DNA of 64,000 nucleotides from Justusliebigvirus alia. Position 1 is the first letter of the stretch. The number at the start of each line of letters is the position of its first letter. The notes beneath the pieces were generated by a model. That model did no database searches. It was not told the origin of the DNA and was given only the letters and a program-made list of their open reading frames with translations. The position numbers were made by a program, and so were the translations under genes. Below, one piece after another: positions 5,958 to 13,209 of this stretch. The stretch lies in the sequence record OZ035799.1, one strand, 5' to 3'.

Positions 5958-6194
5958 ATGAAAGAAGTCATGATCCTCAAAAAATCACCTATTTTACGTG
6001 GTGGCTTTATCGCTTACTCTGATGATCTGTTAATTGCAACGGTTGCAAAAATACTAAAATCAGAAGAGGATAGTAAAAACGGCGTTTATCGTATCTGTTT
6101 CACCCGTGGGAAATTGCAAGGCAAGATCGCCTATGCTTTTGATTTACAAGATGTAAATGATAAAATCTGCGCTGTTATTGATTATGCAAAATAA
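5958..6194 (+). CDS. hypothetical protein (78 aa)
   Basis: ORF with RBS ACAGGAAAAAG; promoter-like TTGACC ... TAATAT upstream. Confidence 0.6.
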   Translation: MKEVMILKKSPILRGGFIAYSDDLLIATVAKILKSEEDSKNGVYRICFTRGKLQGKIAYAFDLQDVNDKICAVIDYAK

Positions 6195-6206
6195 TTAACT
6201 TTCTTA

Positions 6207-6240
6207 TTGACACCGGATCACGCTTACATTATTATTTATC
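6207..6240 (+). promoter_or_regulatory. sigma70-like promoter (TTGACA ... ATTATT)
   Basis: hexamers upstream of CDS 6282. Confidence 0.5.
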
Positions 6241-6281
6241 ACGTAGGGCAAATCATTTTAAACGGTAAACGAGGAAACACC

Positions 6282-6665
6282 ATGAGCAATATCATCAACC
6301 TGGCAGCGACTGTAAACGGTAAAGACTTTAACGGCGCTGTAGACCGTGATCCTATGTGGTGCTTATCAGTGTTTAAAGGCGACCTGGTTGAAGTTAGAAC
6401 AACCGAAGGGTATAGCGATGATTATAAATGCGAGATCCATTTACATAACTGGTACACGGGTAAAACTTATGCGCTGAATCACGCGTTTATCGGGAAAATT
6501 GAATATCGCGAAATGATCGACGAAGAAACGGGGCAAGATTTTAGCGATTATGTTTATATTCGTTCCGAAACATTAGCCGAACGGTTGATCGAGAAAATGA
6601 AAGCAAAAAATAAAATTAATTTATCTCATTGGATTGATATAACAAACGATCCAGCTTATCAGTAA
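6282..6665 (+). CDS. hypothetical protein (127 aa)
   Basis: internal ATG of ORF 6207..6665 behind RBS ACGAGGAAAC. Confidence 0.6.
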   Translation: MSNIINLAATVNGKDFNGAVDRDPMWCLSVFKGDLVEVRTTEGYSDDYKCEIHLHNWYTGKTYALNHAFIGKIEYREMIDEETGQDFSDYVYIRSETLAERLIEKMKAKNKINLSHWIDITNDPAYQ

Positions 6666-6681
6666 ATAACATTCCATACAA

Positions 6682-6707
6682 GGGCGCAATAAGCGCCCTT
6701 TCTTTTT
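6682..6707 (+). terminator. rho-independent terminator (GGGCGC-AATAA-GCGCCC + T-run)
   Basis: same hairpin as terminator at 1301. Confidence 0.75.
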
Positions 6708-6913
6708 ACCTCAATAAAGATGATAGCTTTTACCTATCAAAAACGTTCACCGAAAAAAGTGAATAGATCGCGGTATCGAGCTAATCAAGGAGCAGATGAA
6801 CAACCATACCATGAAGATCATAAGGCGCTTACAACGTGTTTTAGACCGCTTATTTTTAATTTCTTCATGCAACTATCTGGCAAAAACAGCCTTTTTCTTG
6901 TCTTTCCTCTTAA

Positions 6914-6987
6914 ATGATAATCATTCTTATTTATAGCTGATTATTTATGCAATAAACTGCATAATGCAATAATGATAATCATTCTTA
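6914..6987. repeat. two copies of 17-bp direct repeat AATGATAATCATTCTTA, each a Fur-box-like palindrome
   Basis: exact repeat at 6914-6930 and 6971-6987; core matches E. coli Fur consensus GATAATGATAATCATTATC. Confidence 0.55.
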
Positions 6988-7346
6988 ACTTATGACCATC
7001 TAACCTATAAAATAATAAGTTATCTAACTAAATTAAAACTAATTATCTTACTTTTATTTATAACTTACTGTTACTATCTCATTGATAACCTTATATTAAA
7101 CAACAATAACTAATATAAATCATTACTAAGCTAAATATAATCTATCTAACCTTTAAAACTATAACTATAATCTATTGAATTATTGCACAAAGTAACTATT
7201 AAATCGTTAGTAACATTACTAAATAATTAATATCCTATTTATTTATGATCTAATCTTTACCTTACTATCTATTACCTAAATAATCATTTTATACCGTAAT
7301 CATTTCATACAATAATTATAACAAGAAATATAATTAGCAAGCGTAT

Positions 7347-7523
7347 CATTAGCAGCCTATGCCGGACACATAGGCGGCTAATAATAACGCAACTACACAC
7401 CCCACATAATAACCATCACCGATAGTTATTATTTGTGCTTATGTAGCTTGCAACAACTGCAAGCGCAACAATATACATGGTATATTGTATTCCCTTACAT
7501 TGTTGCGGTGCGTTATTATTAGC
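7347..7523. repeat. nested inverted repeats (outer 15-bp IR GCTAATAATAACGCA at 7377-7391 / 7509-7523; inner hairpins at 7347-7369 and 7448-7466)
   Basis: reverse-complement matches seen directly in sequence. Confidence 0.5.
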
Positions 7524-7550
7524 TAATGTTTAGAACATTGGCTATAATAT

Positions 7551-7620
7551 AAGCTATCCAATAATATAAGCTATCCAATAATAATAAGCTATACAATAAT
7601 AATAAGCTATACAATAATAA
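7551..7620. repeat. four tandem copies of a 17-18 bp unit AAGCTAT(C/A)CAATAATAAT (iteron-like)
   Basis: head-to-tail repeats seen directly. Confidence 0.7.
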
Positions 7621-7916
7621 ACATCGTGAATAATGATGCTGATGATCATAATGCGCCACCTTCCAGGGCGGCGCTATGTGAACACAAAGAAATCTTTCTT
7701 GTCAAGAAAAATATTAACACTATTGCGCAAAATTATTTATATATGAATAGATGGTTTTTCATACTATTGCCCCTATAACATACCTCATTTGTTGCAATGT
7801 ACCTTCCTATTTGTTGAGTATAGTTATAGCCTATTTGTTGAGCCTACTTTCTTAAAAGCGCAATAAAGTAGAAATATCTTGATTTTTAGTCGGTTTTATA
7901 GTACAGAAAGTATGCA

Positions 7917-7932
7917 AATGATAATCATTATC
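7917..7932. promoter_or_regulatory. Fur-box-like palindrome AATGATAATCATTATC
   Basis: 17 of 19 positions match the 19-bp Fur consensus. Confidence 0.5.
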
Positions 7933-8097
7933 AGCTATCTTCCACGGGTAGCACTATTTCACGCCAGATCATTTCATTTGGCAAGGTGTATATAGATGTT
8001 TAGACTTGCCAAGCCATTGATTTACTTAGAATTTATCTGTTTTGTTGTGAGTAGTACCTTTCTTGCTCAGAAAATAATCAAAAGTCTTATAAGTCAT

Positions 8098-8133
8098 TGA
8101 ATGATAATGCAAATGATAATTATTCTCATTGAT
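8098..8133. promoter_or_regulatory. Fur-box-like elements (GAATGATAATG / AAATGATAATTATTCTCATT)
   Basis: partial matches to Fur consensus. Confidence 0.35.
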
Positions 8134-8502
8134 ATTTGAGGGGGACGGTCGGCAGAAATCGGGGGGCGCTGAAAATCGCGTTAAGCACCTCTCGCAAGCG
8201 AGCAGTATTTTGCGGCAAGTTATTGATATTATTGACTTTACGCTTATGAAAAGGGGGTGTGTCGAAATAAATCGGGTATACCGGAAAATTTTTGTGGCAT
8301 AGATATTTATTTGTCTATATTATGTACAAAGGGGTGTGTTAAAAATATTAGGTATATATAGAATAATTGATAGGGAAATCCTATGCTAATCCCTCCATTA
8401 ATGATGTTCCTATGTTACTGTTCTTGTAATAGATGAAAAGACGCTGTATGATGTGTGGCATGAAACGTAAACTTACAACGTAAACTTATAAAGGAGTCTG
8501 AT

Positions 8503-8880
8503 ATGTGTGTTCCTCTTAGCAGTCCACTGCTGTTAGAATTTTACAAAGCATGGATGCAAGATCATTCCTCAATGCATCGTGAGAATGTTGGTTTGTGTAT
8601 TTGCCTTATGGATTATCTGGCAACCACTATGTCAAAGAAAAAACCTACGCGAGAAGATATAGAACATTTCAAAATGGTTCGCAGTAAAACGCTGGAAGAG
8701 ATGAAATTGCAATTCACGTGTGCTGGGCTATCCTCCTTCCTGCCCTTTAATGATGATCTTCTGTGTTATGAAGATGAAGGTAAGAAACATTCTTGCCATA
8801 CTAACCCAGAGAGATTGCAGTGGGTGAAAGATCGTATTGCCGATTCATGTTTGGTGTTAGGGGGTGATAATGAAAAGTAA
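8503..8880 (+). CDS. hypothetical protein, paralog family member A (125 aa)
   Basis: RBS AAAGGAG; shares motifs GLCxCLxD, FTCAGL, LPFN, RLQWVKDRI with 8870, 11162 and 12154 ORFs. Confidence 0.7.
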   Translation: MCVPLSSPLLLEFYKAWMQDHSSMHRENVGLCICLMDYLATTMSKKKPTREDIEHFKMVRSKTLEEMKLQFTCAGLSSFLPFNDDLLCYEDEGKKHSCHTNPERLQWVKDRIADSCLVLGGDNEK

Positions 8881-9238
8881 TATTCCGTTGAGTAGTGCAG
8901 CTTTAATACGATTCTATAAAGCATGGATTGCCAACCATCCGGCAATGAATCGCACAACGAGTGGCTTGTGTGGTTGTCTGGTAGATTATGTAGATGATTT
9001 TGTTGGTGAGGTAACTAGAGAAGAAGATAAAAGATGGCGTGATCGTTTGTTGGATAGTTTGAAATACGAAATGAGGAAACAATTTACATGTGCAGGACTG
9101 GACTACAATCTTCCGTTCAATGCAGATTGCATGGATTACCTTTCAGAATGTATAGACTTGGCGTGTCATACCAACACGTTACGTCTTCAATGGGTGAAAG
9201 ACAGAATCGAAGATGCAAATAATGCTTGCATTGAATAG
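8870..9238 (+). CDS. hypothetical protein, paralog family member B (122 aa)
   Basis: RBS AGGGGGTGA; tandem to member A with same motifs. Confidence 0.7.
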   Translation: MKSNIPLSSAALIRFYKAWIANHPAMNRTTSGLCGCLVDYVDDFVGEVTREEDKRWRDRLLDSLKYEMRKQFTCAGLDYNLPFNADCMDYLSECIDLACHTNTLRLQWVKDRIEDANNACIE

Positions 9239-9309
9239 AAATGCCTGTACACTGTGTTCCATAAGATATGCAATATCGCGCATAACAAAACTACTAATGA
9301 GAGGTGTAA

Positions 9310-9768
9310 ATGAAAACTGTATCTTTGTATCTTGCTAACACGGAGCGTGTACATAATCTTGTAAAAGAATGCGGTGTGAGTGTTCAATTTAACATAGGAA
9401 CGCCTTCCGTGGTGACAGGCAGCGAGATGTGTGTTATTGATTTCATCAATGAATATTTTCGTGGGAAGCCTATTGCTCGTCACTTCATTCGAGAAATGCG
9501 AGATGTACAACAGGATTATGAATTCTACCCAGAAATTTGTGAACGCTATGAAACTATTCTTAGTTCTGTAGAAGATCCAGATACCAGTGAAACAGGTGTT
9601 TCCCACTTACTGTGGATGTTGAATGAAATCCAGGATGGGTGTAATGATATGTCTGAAACCAAACGCCATCGTTGGCTAGGCTATATTCAGGGTGTTATGG
9701 TTATGAAAAACCTTATTACAGTTGATGATGAACGTAACGCTACGCGCCCCGTCTTTAATGGAGCATAA
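9310..9768 (+). CDS. hypothetical protein (152 aa)
   Basis: ORF with RBS GAGAGGTG. Confidence 0.6.
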   Translation: MKTVSLYLANTERVHNLVKECGVSVQFNIGTPSVVTGSEMCVIDFINEYFRGKPIARHFIREMRDVQQDYEFYPEICERYETILSSVEDPDTSETGVSHLLWMLNEIQDGCNDMSETKRHRWLGYIQGVMVMKNLITVDDERNATRPVFNGA

Positions 9769-9769
9769 C

Positions 9770-9985
9770 ATGAAAAGCATCCAGGTGTGTATTGAAAATA
9801 ATTGTGGTTATCTGGGATTGACACACGTTGCTTTCCCTCTTATGTTAGATGCCGATATCGCTTACAGCGGAGTTGCTTATGTGTCATTCAAGACAATGAG
9901 CCAAGTACCTGGCTGGAAGTGGGAAGTAGTTGATGTTGTTGAAGGAGAAGACTATGTTTTCCTTCCACACGAATATACTGTTTAA
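9770..9985 (+). CDS. hypothetical protein (71 aa)
   Basis: internal ATG of ORF 9722..9985 with RBS AATGGAG. Confidence 0.5.
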   Translation: MKSIQVCIENNCGYLGLTHVAFPLMLDADIAYSGVAYVSFKTMSQVPGWKWEVVDVVEGEDYVFLPHEYTV

Positions 9986-9999
9986 AAGAGGAAAAGAAG

Positions 10000-10176
10000 A
10001 TGGATAAACAAACTACTGTGTACTTAGTAACAAAGAATACCCCAGGCTGGAGCCAATGCAGCACTGTACCTTACAAAATCTGTGCAACATTAGAACTAGC
10101 ACAACGTGCAGAAGCAGAAGTGAATGCCATGCAATACAGCTATGGTGAAATCATTCCTTTTACTCTTGAACAATAA
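10000..10176 (+). CDS. hypothetical protein (58 aa)
   Basis: ORF not in track; RBS AAGAGGAAAAG. Confidence 0.5.
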   Translation: MDKQTTVYLVTKNTPGWSQCSTVPYKICATLELAQRAEAEVNAMQYSYGEIIPFTLEQ

Positions 10177-10187
10177 GGAGTTGTGTA

Positions 10188-10640
10188 ATGTTTGAAATTG
10201 GTAAAGTGTATCGTTTTAAAAACCCATCTTATATCCGTAAGTTTGCTAACGTGTCTGAGTGCAATAGCAGGATTGCTTCTTTTTTAGGTGATTCCTATTT
10301 TCGTGTATTAGATGTGGATGACTGGTATGGTGTCACTGCTTTGCAATCCTTAGCAGGAGAACAAGAAATTATCGCTCAAAATGAAGGAGACTTTCTTCAG
10401 TGTTACACGTTGCTTGCAAAAAGTGAGTTTGAGTATTTTGTAGAAGTCTTAGAGGAAGCACCAAAAAGTAAACACGAAGAGAAATACCTGCTTGTAGTGG
10501 ATGGAGTTCCGATCATGGAAACCATCTCCCGTGAGGAAGTTGAAAAAGAGGCGAAACGTTACAAACTGGATCGTACACAGAGTGTAGTTGAAGTCTATTC
10601 TCTTGTTGGTGTTGCAGATATTCATGTGAACATTGTATAA
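10188..10640 (+). CDS. hypothetical protein (150 aa)
   Basis: RBS AAGGAG. Confidence 0.65.
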   Translation: MFEIGKVYRFKNPSYIRKFANVSECNSRIASFLGDSYFRVLDVDDWYGVTALQSLAGEQEIIAQNEGDFLQCYTLLAKSEFEYFVEVLEEAPKSKHEEKYLLVVDGVPIMETISREEVEKEAKRYKLDRTQSVVEVYSLVGVADIHVNIV

Positions 10641-10643
10641 TAT

Positions 10644-10856
10644 ATGTGTAATGACAGATACATTCTTCGTGTATCTGATAAGTCTCCTATGTTTGACTGG
10701 CGGGGCTGGTGGCTACTGGCTCCGATGCAAGGTCTGACTGACGTGGAAAAGGAGGCTTATGTGTATACAAAAGAAGATATAGAAGATAACCTTTATTTGA
10801 CAGATAACATTAAGAATGGTATCTTTGAGTGTAAATTGAAAGGAGAGGAAGAATGA
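10644..10856 (+). CDS. hypothetical protein (70 aa)
   Basis: ORF, weak RBS. Confidence 0.45.
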   Translation: MCNDRYILRVSDKSPMFDWRGWWLLAPMQGLTDVEKEAYVYTKEDIEDNLYLTDNIKNGIFECKLKGEEE

Positions 10857-11152
10857 CTGTTACAGAAAAACTGCGTTGTATTGCAAAGCAAAGTGGAGAA
10901 GGCTTATGGTTTCCTATTGATGAAGTTATTCAGGACTGTTATGATCAGGCTAAGACTGGCAAATATTCCAAAGCATTTAAACCATCTGTTTTCGGTTTGG
11001 ATGACTATCCGACAAATGAACAAGCAAGGAAACGCCAAGTTGATTTGATTGATCTTGCTATGGAAGCACTACGAGAGCGTGGGCTTAGTAAGGTGTATGC
11101 TTTAAACACCAAAGAGGGTTTTGTAGATTCAGTGATCGTAGATTGGCATTAA
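10853..11152 (+). CDS. hypothetical protein (99 aa)
   Basis: RBS AAAGGAGAGG. Confidence 0.6.
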   Translation: MTVTEKLRCIAKQSGEGLWFPIDEVIQDCYDQAKTGKYSKAFKPSVFGLDDYPTNEQARKRQVDLIDLAMEALRERGLSKVYALNTKEGFVDSVIVDWH

Positions 11153-11161
11153 GGAGAAGCC

Positions 11162-11530
11162 ATGCAAGAAAATAATAAAGTGTGTAACATGAAAAGCAGC
11201 CCCTATTTGCTACAATTTTATGAGTGGTGGTTAGAACAAGAAGATACAAACTTTAGCAAAAAGCATTATGGTCTTTGCACGTGTCTTGTAGACTTCTTAT
11301 ACAATATTGCTTGGATAAAAGATGTTGAGAATGTATCAAAGCTCCAATCCTCTGTACGAGAGGAAATGAAGGAACAATTTAAGAAAGCGGGTTTGAACCA
11401 TTTACATCCGTTTAATACGGATTTCTCGCACTACTTTACGGAAACAGAGCTAGGCATTGCACACCTTAATAAAGAACGTGTACAATGGGTGATTGATCGT
11501 ATTCGTGATATGGAGGAATACAATGGTTAA
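11162..11530 (+). CDS. hypothetical protein, paralog family member C (122 aa)
   Basis: RBS TAAGGAG; family motifs GLCTCLVD, PFN, VQWVIDRI. Confidence 0.7.
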   Translation: MQENNKVCNMKSSPYLLQFYEWWLEQEDTNFSKKHYGLCTCLVDFLYNIAWIKDVENVSKLQSSVREEMKEQFKKAGLNHLHPFNTDFSHYFTETELGIAHLNKERVQWVIDRIRDMEEYNG

Positions 11531-11741
11531 GTTTAAAACTTTCTGTGCAATCACTGTTTGTCTTATTCTTGCATACGTGTTATTCTCTGGTATCGTTCGT
11601 TTAGGTGAGTATATGGCAAGAGAAGCTCGTGCAAGCGAAGCTAAAAAAGAACAGTGTATTGTGTTCAAGCATCAAAGAGATGCTGAAAAGTTTCTCGCAC
11701 TTGATTGCAATCGTTATGTATCTTATCAAATGTATGAGTAA
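11523..11741 (+). CDS. small membrane-anchored hypothetical protein (73 aa); paralog of 15605..15829
   Basis: RBS GGAGGAA; N-terminal TM helix then KEQCIVFKHQRDAEKFL motif. Confidence 0.6.
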   Translation: MVKFKTFCAITVCLILAYVLFSGIVRLGEYMAREARASEAKKEQCIVFKHQRDAEKFLALDCNRYVSYQMYE

Positions 11742-11750
11742 GGAGGGTTT

Positions 11751-11975
11751 ATGGTAAAACGTCTAGAATGGGATGCGTGTACTGCTCACGCTTGTCACTG
11801 TGATATTGTTGAAGATCCTAACGGAGAGATGGTGTATTATGAGGATTACGAAGCATTGCACAATGCTGTGATTGCTTTGCTGGATGATATTAGCTCACGC
11901 TATCCAGGACAACAATTCACGTGTCCACATATCCAACTATTAGCCGAACTTACGGAGTATCCAAGTGTTCCATAA
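11751..11975 (+). CDS. hypothetical protein (74 aa); paralog of 16511..16774
   Basis: RBS TAAGGAGGG; shared CDIV-DP-GE motif. Confidence 0.6.
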   Translation: MVKRLEWDACTAHACHCDIVEDPNGEMVYYEDYEALHNAVIALLDDISSRYPGQQFTCPHIQLLAELTEYPSVP

Positions 11976-11977
11976 TA

Positions 11978-12145
11978 TGGGTGTCCCTGAACAACTCCTC
12001 TTTATTGTAGGATTAGTAGGCTTATTGGCGGCTGGAGCTAAAGCCGCTTCTCACACGCATCACATAATGTTAAGATTTCTATTCCTGCTCCCTTCTATCC
12101 TCGTACTACTAGTCATACTGATCGATAACATTTTTCACAATTAAG
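11978..12145 (+). CDS. small hydrophobic membrane protein (55 aa)
   Basis: ORF not in track; two predicted TM stretches. Confidence 0.4.
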
Positions 12146-12153
12146 GAGAGGCT

Positions 12154-12738
12154 ATGAGTAAAATTATACCAAGCAGTTATGAATTATTGCAGTTTTATGT
12201 ATATTATATAGACTGGGTTAATAGATCGAATGTTAAAGACAATGCGATGTTTAGTAAAAACATCTGTTTAACAGAAAGTATCTTCCGTTATTGGCACACA
12301 GGCAGAAAGTGTACACACAGTGAAGCTATGCGTATTGTAGGTGAATACCTGGAGCAATTGCAAAAAGCAGAACTTCCTGTCCTTCACCCATTCAATGAAT
12401 CTAAAGAAGAATTAGAACAAGAGTGTAGAGAAGGTAAGTGCCATCTGAATGAAAAACGTATCGAATGGGTGAGGCAACGTTTAGCCGATGCAGGAAATCC
12501 TCCTAGTGACTCTGACTATACGTGGTATGATGTAGAGGGTTTAGTTCAAGGTTTTGAGGCTTGTGCTATAGATAATACCAACTTTGCCAAAGTTTTATGC
12601 GAGGCTTATGACCTGGCAGATAAAATCCGAAATCACGGATGGAAACAAGAGCATAAAGAATCATATGAACGCCTTGACAAGATTTTCAAACAGATCTATT
12701 CTAACCACAAGAAGATGTTCCAAATGGAGGATGTGTAA
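12154..12738 (+). CDS. hypothetical protein, paralog family member D with C-terminal extension (194 aa)
   Basis: RBS TAAGGAGAGG; N-terminal 120 aa carries family motifs (LQFY, HPFN, RIEWVRQRL). Confidence 0.65.
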   Translation: MSKIIPSSYELLQFYVYYIDWVNRSNVKDNAMFSKNICLTESIFRYWHTGRKCTHSEAMRIVGEYLEQLQKAELPVLHPFNESKEELEQECREGKCHLNEKRIEWVRQRLADAGNPPSDSDYTWYDVEGLVQGFEACAIDNTNFAKVLCEAYDLADKIRNHGWKQEHKESYERLDKIFKQIYSNHKKMFQMEDV

Positions 12739-12804
12739 TGAAAGAGATTATGTTTGAAGGGCATCGCATTGAATTGCTAAAACACGTTAAATAAGGAGAG
12801 TAAT

Positions 12805-13209
12805 ATGTGGTCTGTTAAAATCAAATATAATGCGCAGTATTATGGTGGAAAGCCTTACGAAGTTGTTATTTGTGACTGTATCTCTAAAGAAGTTGCACAG
12901 CTTTGTGGTGCTGGTGTTAGTGAAGCTATGAACAAAATGCATAACTCGACTGTGCGTTACCTGGATCAAGATATTCCAGAAGATGTAAATGACTATGCTT
13001 ACGAAGTTATTTACAGTGAAGGTAAGAAGCTCTCTATTGAAGATGCACTTAAAGCACTACCTGCTATGTGCAGCCCAACACCAGAAGCAGTTAAAGAGAT
13101 TTTACCAGAATCCAACCCCGATGAATATGCCTCTATGGTTGCTTCAGATATGTGGAATCTCTGTCGAGAAACTATGATTAAAAATCTTGTGGAAATGGCA
13201 CATGAGTAA
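12805..13209 (+). CDS. hypothetical protein (134 aa)
   Basis: RBS TAAGGAGAG. Confidence 0.65.
   Translation: MWSVKIKYNAQYYGGKPYEVVICDCISKEVAQLCGAGVSEAMNKMHNSTVRYLDQDIPEDVNDYAYEVIYSEGKKLSIEDALKALPAMCSPTPEAVKEILPESNPDEYASMVASDMWNLCRETMIKNLVEMAHE

Follow-up and report, generated by a model that had tools for sequence, protein, structure and literature searches.

Four old paralogs of a large phage-restricted protein family, with a predicted six-helix domain, in Justusliebigvirus alia

We analyzed a 64,000-nucleotide stretch of DNA from the phi92-like E. coli myovirus Justusliebigvirus alia (sequence record OZ035799.1; hereafter the window), in which a preliminary description had singled out four open reading frames (ORFs), starting at positions 8503, 8870, 11162 and 12154 of the + strand, as a paralogous family of small early proteins with conserved Cys/His motifs. 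We found that the four ORFs are real genes, homologous to one another, and old paralogs; that they belong to a large family essentially confined to phages is close to certain. The domain that they share is a compact bundle of six predicted helices without a detectable relative among solved structures. We tentatively infer that it is a binding module, made early and dispensable to the phage, that is directed at host or defence targets.

Paralog 1 occupies 8503..8880 (125 amino acids, aa), paralog 2 occupies 8870..9238 (122 aa) and paralog 3 occupies 11162..11530 (122 aa). Paralog 4 is a 194-aa protein (ORF 12154-12738) composed of an N-terminal family domain (12154..12498, residues 1-115) and a C-terminal extension (12499..12738, about 78 aa plus the stop codon), slightly longer than the 70 or so residues first estimated. 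All four lie on the + strand, and every pair is significantly similar in BLASTP (E 1e-8 to 1e-33): paralogs 1 and 2 are 47% identical (E 2e-33), paralogs 1 and 3 41% (E 1e-26), paralogs 2 and 3 37% (E 2e-20), and paralog 4 shares 30-37% identity with the other three (E 1e-8 to 1e-10). A MAFFT alignment of the four copies gives 32-48% identity to the first copy and contains 24 invariant columns. A family profile hidden Markov model (HMM) matches paralogs 1, 2 and 3 and the N-terminal domain of paralog 4 with E-values of 9e-32, 2e-30, 7e-35 and 3e-31, respectively. We also searched a six-frame translation of the window with an HMM built from the four copies and with a broader HMM built from 121 relatives; each returned exactly four matches, and no fifth copy was found in the 64 kb, the next HMM match having E > 0.6. 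The similarity thus goes beyond composition, as alignment, BLASTP and HMM tests all show.

Each of the four starts is preceded, at a distance of 6-8 nt, by a Shine-Dalgarno (SD) sequence, AAGGAG for paralogs 1, 3 and 4 and GGGGGTGA for paralog 2. The ATG that gives the 122-aa form of paralog 2 lies 11 nt inside the end of paralog 1 (an alternative GTG is found at 8864), and paralog 2 is apparently translationally coupled to paralog 1. We considered whether the ORFs might not be genuine genes, their likeness reflecting base composition or a DNA repeat. This explanation is refuted by the significant BLASTP and HMM E-values, the SD sequence at each ORF, ratios of nonsynonymous to synonymous substitution (dN/dS) well below 1, thousands of homologs and a confident fold prediction.

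The motif string first proposed for the four proteins holds, with some qualifications. SSxLLxFY, PFN, HxN and R(L/V/I)(Q/E)WV are common to all four copies, whereas GLCxCL is present in three (the 12154 copy has NICLTE instead) and FTCAGL in two, the others reading FKKAGL and LQKAEL. All elements of a core signature (L-x2-FY-x2-W, GLC-x-N/C-L, E-M-x2-QF-x2-AGL, PFN, Y-x2-E and H-x-N-x2-R-x2-WV) are found in the copies at 8503, 8870 and 11162. In the 12154 copy, FY..W, PFN, HLN..R..WV and Q..AEL are retained, and CLT replaces GLC.

The domain of about 105 aa matches PHROGs 2510, 27059 and 6418, all of unknown function, in agreement with the earlier statement that no function could be recognized. 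Paralogs 1, 2 and 3 match phrog_2510 with E-values of 7e-22, 4e-24 and 1e-25; paralog 4 matches phrog_27059 end to end (E 1e-139) and phrog_2510 at E 5e-17. These PHROGs are automatic clusters without a name, function, structure or domain definition, and their profiles, 194-231 positions long, mix the domain with fused extensions. Searches of the domain against Pfam, NCBIfam and PADLOC gave nothing above noise, the family profile found no chain with E below 0.2 among all PDB sequences, and a literature search for the PHROG identifiers yielded nothing useful. We rejected several weak candidates. A lone 12-bit match to TenA/thiaminase II has no fold support and was treated as chance; stray matches to ParB-like proteins, ATG11, DREPP and Cas12d fall far below the cut-offs; and Crl (PF07417 / NF008217), which recurred as a weak HMM match, reached an hhalign probability of 2.6% and is contradicted by fold comparison.

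The size of the family became apparent in an exhaustive HMMER search with a 26-sequence profile, in which matches were counted as clusters represented at 50% identity: 1500 clusters matched at E<=1e-3 and 653 at E<=1e-10. Word-indexed protein searches returned only 20-41 clusters each, and a single-protein search for related loci found two close loci only. The members are mostly stand-alone proteins, 95-125 aa long; among the 150 best representatives, 17 carry two or three domains in tandem. P0031 and P0042 are examples of natural two-domain fusions. A consensus query matched 476 places in 205 phage records and a single plasmid among 72,556, and the family is essentially phage-restricted. Its hosts are alpha-, beta- and gamma-Proteobacteria of the genera Escherichia, Salmonella, Klebsiella, Erwinia, Pectobacterium, Yersinia, Pseudomonas, Rhizobium, Achromobacter, Burkholderia and Delftia. 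The same plasmid count led us to reject an association with plasmid leading regions, which carry anti-defence genes.

We modelled the domain with AlphaFold2. For the 11162 copy, a model built from the family alignment has six helices, with a predicted local distance difference test (pLDDT) score of 85.4 and a predicted template modelling score of 0.79. The family domain of the 12154 copy is modelled at pLDDT 92-97, and its extension as three helices (residues 127-140, 142-161 and 165-189) at pLDDT 47-77. A Foldseek comparison with 350,542 PDB chains gave nothing at E<2, and the extension has no fold match in the PDB. The best structural match was the Legionella effector MavE (6PIR), a helical protein in which 81 residues could be superposed; we do not find it convincing. 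In a library of viral models (BFVD), all significant matches are uncharacterised phage proteins, themselves members of the family. The C-terminal extension has no paralog elsewhere in the window and only weak matches to PHROGs of unknown function.

We counted residue conservation in 121 family representatives, using the numbering of the 11162 protein. Y20, P83, F84 and R106 are invariant, and L16, F19, W23, G37, L38, C39, E68, Q72, F73, L78, N103, W109 and V110 are conserved in at least 90%. An aromatic and aliphatic core (L16, F19, Y20, W23, L38, L42, M69, F73, L78, F84, Y91, W109 and V110) dominates the conserved positions. Among the remainder, S13, G37, N85 and N103 lie at helix ends or in loops, where structural capping roles would fit, and E68, Q72, E94 and R106 are further conserved polar residues. 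The connection between helices 3 and 4 is hypervariable and rich in insertions and deletions, the columns for residues 50-59 being occupied in 12-85 of the 121 sequences; this is the divergent linker noticed at the outset.

The conserved Cys/His motifs and the zinc-binding fold that had been suspected did not hold up. Cys39, in the first turn of helix 3 and preceded by a conserved Gly-Leu, is present in 120 of the 121 representatives, and the 12154 copy has Thr at this position. His101 is found in 91 (75%) and is otherwise mostly Tyr or Phe. Cys100 occurs in 68 (56%), Cys95 in 20, the second Cys of the CxC motif (Cys41) in 13 and the Cys of FTCAGL (Cys74) in fewer than five. With Cys39 alone conserved, there is no conserved three- or four-ligand site, and we rejected a zinc finger or structural zinc site, which calls for three to four conserved Cys/His ligands, as a feature of the family. 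That the 8503 and 8870 copies are rich in Cys, with seven each, is lineage-specific, and these two copies might conceivably hold a metal site of their own.

The near-invariant Cys39 could instead mark a new small all-alpha enzyme or a ligand trap. The domain would then be a small enzyme or a protein that binds a small molecule or metal, with Cys39, His101, Asn103, Glu68, Gln72 and Arg106 forming the site, and it might modify host proteins or capture a signalling molecule. In its favour are the position of Cys39 directly after Gly-Leu in helix 3 and its presence in nearly all representatives, the many polar positions conserved at 90% or more, a mean Cys content of 2.8% in the family, and the seven Cys in each of the two adjacent copies. 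We consider this explanation rather unlikely, and return to it with the mosaic proteins below.

The preliminary description had called the proteins fast-diverging, and here our results point the other way. We estimated dN/dS by the Nei-Gojobori method for the window genes against their orthologs in related phages, with three neighbouring genes as controls. Orthologs of the family genes give values of 0.06-0.3, in the same range as the controls: 0.20 for paralog 1, 0-0.19 for paralog 2 and 0.10-0.18 for paralog 4. The 11162 copy spans 0.06-0.65 with few substitutions, the 0.65 coming from one comparison with 8 substitutions. The orthologs are under purifying selection. The paralogs, in turn, must be old, since they are only 30-47% identical to one another.

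The 8870 copy is the most widely conserved of the four. Its protein is 91% identical to phAPEC8 gp019 and 98% identical to a phiWec179 copy, that is, 91-98% identical across two genera, and the other three copies have no counterpart above 47% protein identity in Phapecoctavirus, the sister genus. At the DNA level, this second paralog is 93-97% identical between Justusliebigvirus and Phapecoctavirus (window 8870-9238; L010 7356-7724; L011 12738-13106); the next gene, 9310-9768, shows about 72% identity to phiWec179 in a partial match. This suggests either a recent exchange between the genera or unusually strong constraint on the second paralog.

Copy number is what varies. The first 20 kb of phAPEC8 contain seven family genes, and phiWec179 has at least seven. 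At the first locus, phiWec179 carries three tandem copies, and the window genome, EmilieFrey and PATM carry two. JohannJBalmer has one, a chimera with the body of the 8503 copy and the tail of the 8870 copy that arose by recombination between the adjacent paralogs, its junction lying within the shared segment coding for RLQWVKDRI. The reference phage alia, NC_052655, has none: both 8503 and 8870 are missing, and the next gene (9310-9768) is shortened. Relative to L013 the natural deletion corresponds to window 8833-9187, and relative to L012 to window 8479-9209. E. coli K-12 supports the growth of all these copy-number variants, and on this host the first two copies are therefore dispensable. 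What emerges is birth-and-death turnover of a stable domain rather than rapid sequence divergence.

The window region 8000-13000 is 100% identical to another Justusliebigvirus alia record, OZ035770.1. The RefSeq genome of this species, NC_052655, departs from OZ035770.1 here in lacking both first-locus genes. Many phi92-like E. coli myoviruses of the Stephanstirmvirinae are 95-98% identical over the same region. In annotated relatives, all genes of the region, including every GenBank ortholog of the four copies, are labelled 'hypothetical protein'; paralog 3 corresponds to Phi92_gp006 (so annotated in PATM) and paralog 4 to Phi92_gp010. We note that five GenBank records are titled 'Campylobacter phage', with C. 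jejuni given as the host, and that MG065639, MG065645, MG065656 and MG065689 are 97% identical to the E. coli phage region over its full length. The C. jejuni assignment of these records looks doubtful.

We then considered when the genes might be expressed. Between a terminator-like hairpin at 6680-6700 and paralog 1 lie 1.8 kb of DNA that is AT-rich and poor in ORFs (6701..8502, unstranded, GC content 0.33). This region, directly upstream of paralog 1 and outside the family, is presumed to be regulatory. The overlapping 8503/8870 pair opens a + strand block that extends to about 20 kb, and phAPEC8 and phiWec179 have the same layout upstream of their first family gene. Early expression of the four genes is plausible from position: they are the first genes after the terminator and the ORF-poor region, at the head of the + strand block, and in T7-like and N4-like phages relatives are found in early regions at the left end. 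In Rhizobium Autographiviridae, genes 002 and 003, which stand at the extreme left, together hold three domains; in N4-like Erwinia and Achromobacter phages the family is near the left end, and in an N4-like contig a member stands between homologs of N4 gp1/gp2 and the RNA polymerase gene. In other settings, a contig that carries gene families of the T4 type has a member beside its DNA ligase gene, and in T1-like phages and Akiravirus members are surrounded by small genes without annotation. Neighbouring genes offered no functional clue in six phage lineages, being almost all unannotated. An early or accessory status of the four genes is plausible, and the natural deletions show two copies to be dispensable.

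We hypothesized that the domain acts as a non-enzymatic scaffold that would be produced at the very start of infection and bind host proteins. The conserved residues would build the scaffold, which would need no zinc site, and the variable helix 3-4 segment together with the surface would set specificity, so that each paralog might engage its own host factor or a component of abortive-infection-type defence. The domain would probably act as a homo- or hetero-oligomer, an idea suggested by the tandem fusions among the best 150 representatives and by the 8503/8870 gene overlap; the overlapping pair could correspond to an unfused version of the two- and three-domain fusions that occur naturally. 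We regard the genes as accessory, copies being gained, lost and recombined by lineages rather than quickly evolved. Multi-copy early accessory genes for host takeover or counter-defence are a general class in virulent phages. The family is like this class in position, small size, dispensability, copy-number turnover and phage restriction, and differs from it in that none of the characterised members is related to it by sequence or fold.

A broader version of this idea is possible, though doubtful. The domain would be a previously undescribed fold used by diverse proteobacterial phages (myo-, sipho- and podoviruses, jumbo phages and temperate lambdoids) as a module of the immediate-early stage that would disable either a conserved sensor of the host or a component of abortive-infection-type immunity, with divergent copies and fusions serving as specificity arrays. 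Were it true, such arrays of divergent copies would be comparable to anti-CRISPR or anti-defence islands.

Several observations weigh against a scaffold-type early binding module. A promoter scan gave no enrichment over shuffled sequence, and we found no transcriptome or proteome of the phi92-like phage group in the literature. Basic proteins make up 25 of the 121 representatives. Conserved polar residues are also many for a pure scaffold (Y20, C39, N41, E68, Q72, N85, Y91, E94, H101, N103 and R106), and could mark a ligand pocket or active site.

Charge also bears on two other explanations. The window proteins are mildly negative (net charge -3 to -6), and the 121 representatives have a median pI of 5.3, with 83 below pI 6. 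The proteins might be DNA-binding regulators of the helix-turn-helix type, or might bind the RNA polymerase or sigma factor of the host; in this phage, which has no RNA polymerase of its own, they would then bring about the switch from early to middle transcription. Weak fold matches are what speaks for such a role, which the acidic composition of the family and the natural deletions of copies make improbable. Small size, acidity and early placement would equally suit anti-restriction proteins or DNA mimics of the Ocr/ArdA type. We regard this as very unlikely. The charge of the proteins is merely mildly negative, no known anti-restriction fold appears among the PDB matches, and our searches for known anti-phage defence and anti-restriction families gave no PADLOC profile match and no fold match of the Ocr, ArdA or KlcA type. 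Furthermore, the BASEL study found phi92-like phages to be exceptionally sensitive to restriction-modification systems (PMC8594841), and this sensitivity, together with the near-absence of the family from plasmids, argues against an anti-restriction role.

The domain also occurs within larger proteins. In some EaA, Ead and 'ead/Ea22-like' mosaic proteins, encoded next to int in P22-like and lambdoid phages and prophages, it is an internal module (P0149, P0141, P0128, P0131, P0109), and in the P22-like Lederbergvirus GE_vB_TR it lies just upstream of int. These mosaic proteins differ in architecture from the window proteins, which consist of the stand-alone domain, or the domain with a helical tail, in a virulent myovirus. 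The EaA-type proteins are multi-module, with an N-terminal 'MTTITRE..LARIALASL' module, Pro/Ala linkers and further modules, and a C-terminal 'WNACRAAML' module also occurs; the window proteins have none of these, and only one module is common to both. Hence, they are not members of the EaA type. We had expected the EaA protein of SEN22 to carry the domain as well, but the tblastn match turned out to be the shared N-terminal module. In SEN22 EaA, the slot held elsewhere by the family domain contains a different module, which we take to be DUF550/MazG-like. This exchange in a mosaic slot counts in favour of the enzyme or ligand-trap explanation given above. Among fusion partners of the domain we found only further tandem copies, DUF551 and unannotated mosaic modules, and no enzymatic domain of Pfam or NCBIfam. 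DUF551 (PF04448), fused to the domain in P0097 and in Escherichia phage Av-05, is drawn from the same pool of mosaic modules; it is a separate domain, and none of the four window proteins carries it.

The EaA/Ead mosaic genes are non-essential, and their biochemical function is unknown; EaA/Ead/Ea22-like genes are expressed early (Ea22 literature; PMC10834534, PMC7093339). Lambda Ea22 itself, an accessory protein made early and encoded in an uncharacterised region, is believed to work by way of a host partner yet to be identified; it is composed of a coiled coil and a mixed alpha-beta C-terminal domain (PMC10834534). We rejected homology of the family to lambda Ea22: the family model is all-alpha, and neither sequence nor fold searches give any connection.

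The sequences of the four genes are identical to 'hypothetical' early genes already in GenBank, and the family is at present one among many uncharacterised families of phage early genes. We nevertheless regard it as a better-than-average target, because it comprises about 1500 clusters, is nearly exclusive to phages and is early or accessory in unrelated phage types; because it has a confident predicted fold without a structural or curated sequence relative; and because natural variants with zero, one, two and three copies, available in the BASEL and related collections, can be compared on panels of defence systems. The domain definition also accounts for one module of the EaA/Ead mosaic proteins of P22-like phages and lambdoid prophages.

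None of the genes that lie between the paralogs in the window has a known function. The 150-aa product of 10188-10640 weakly matches the PHROG of T4 goF, annotated 'mRNA metabolism modulator' (E 3e-6), and matches PHROGs of unknown function more strongly; a goF-type 'mRNA metabolism modulator' annotation is carried by one relative, phage Eryne. In most relatives, among them phi92, EmilieFrey, PATM and JLBYU50, the 194-aa paralog is directly followed by a 687-bp gene, Phi92_gp011, which is absent from the window at 12738-12805 and whose counterpart in JLBYU50 is labelled 'putative ead/Ea22-like family protein'. JLBYU50 also bears a DUF551 label on its ortholog of 12805-13209, which Pfam did not reproduce for the window gene. 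The early region of an N4-like metagenomic contig contains, on the opposite strand and about 4 kb from a family member, a gene that matches Phage_gp49_66 and Sequestin in Pfam (L017 522-1046); its family is that of the anti-CBASS cyclic-nucleotide sponges.

The ORF-poor region upstream of paralog 1 contains two sets of repeats. AATGATAATCATTMTYA is present in four copies (6913-6929, 6971-6987, 7917-7933 and 8112-8128) and closely resembles the Fur-box consensus of E. coli, GATAATGATAATCATTATC. This consensus, allowing up to three mismatches, has three matches in the window versus 0.06 expected. Related Justusliebigvirus genomes have the core AATGATAATNATT in the same upstream region, and in phAPEC8 and phiWec179 it lies 360-390 bp upstream of the first family gene. 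The early region of this virulent phage may thus be under iron/Fur control, or may titrate Fur; a literature search on Fur boxes in phages found nothing useful. The second set, ATAAGCTATMCAATAATAA, consists of four head-to-tail repeats of 17-18 bp at 7549-7620, with a degenerate fifth copy at 7000-7018, and looks like an array of iterons or of promoter/operator sites. No Rfam family matched window 6000-13000. Elsewhere in the window, the sign of the GC skew changes near 20 kb and 56 kb, where the direction of transcription changes, and 15 tRNA genes are clustered on the + strand at 59517-62140.

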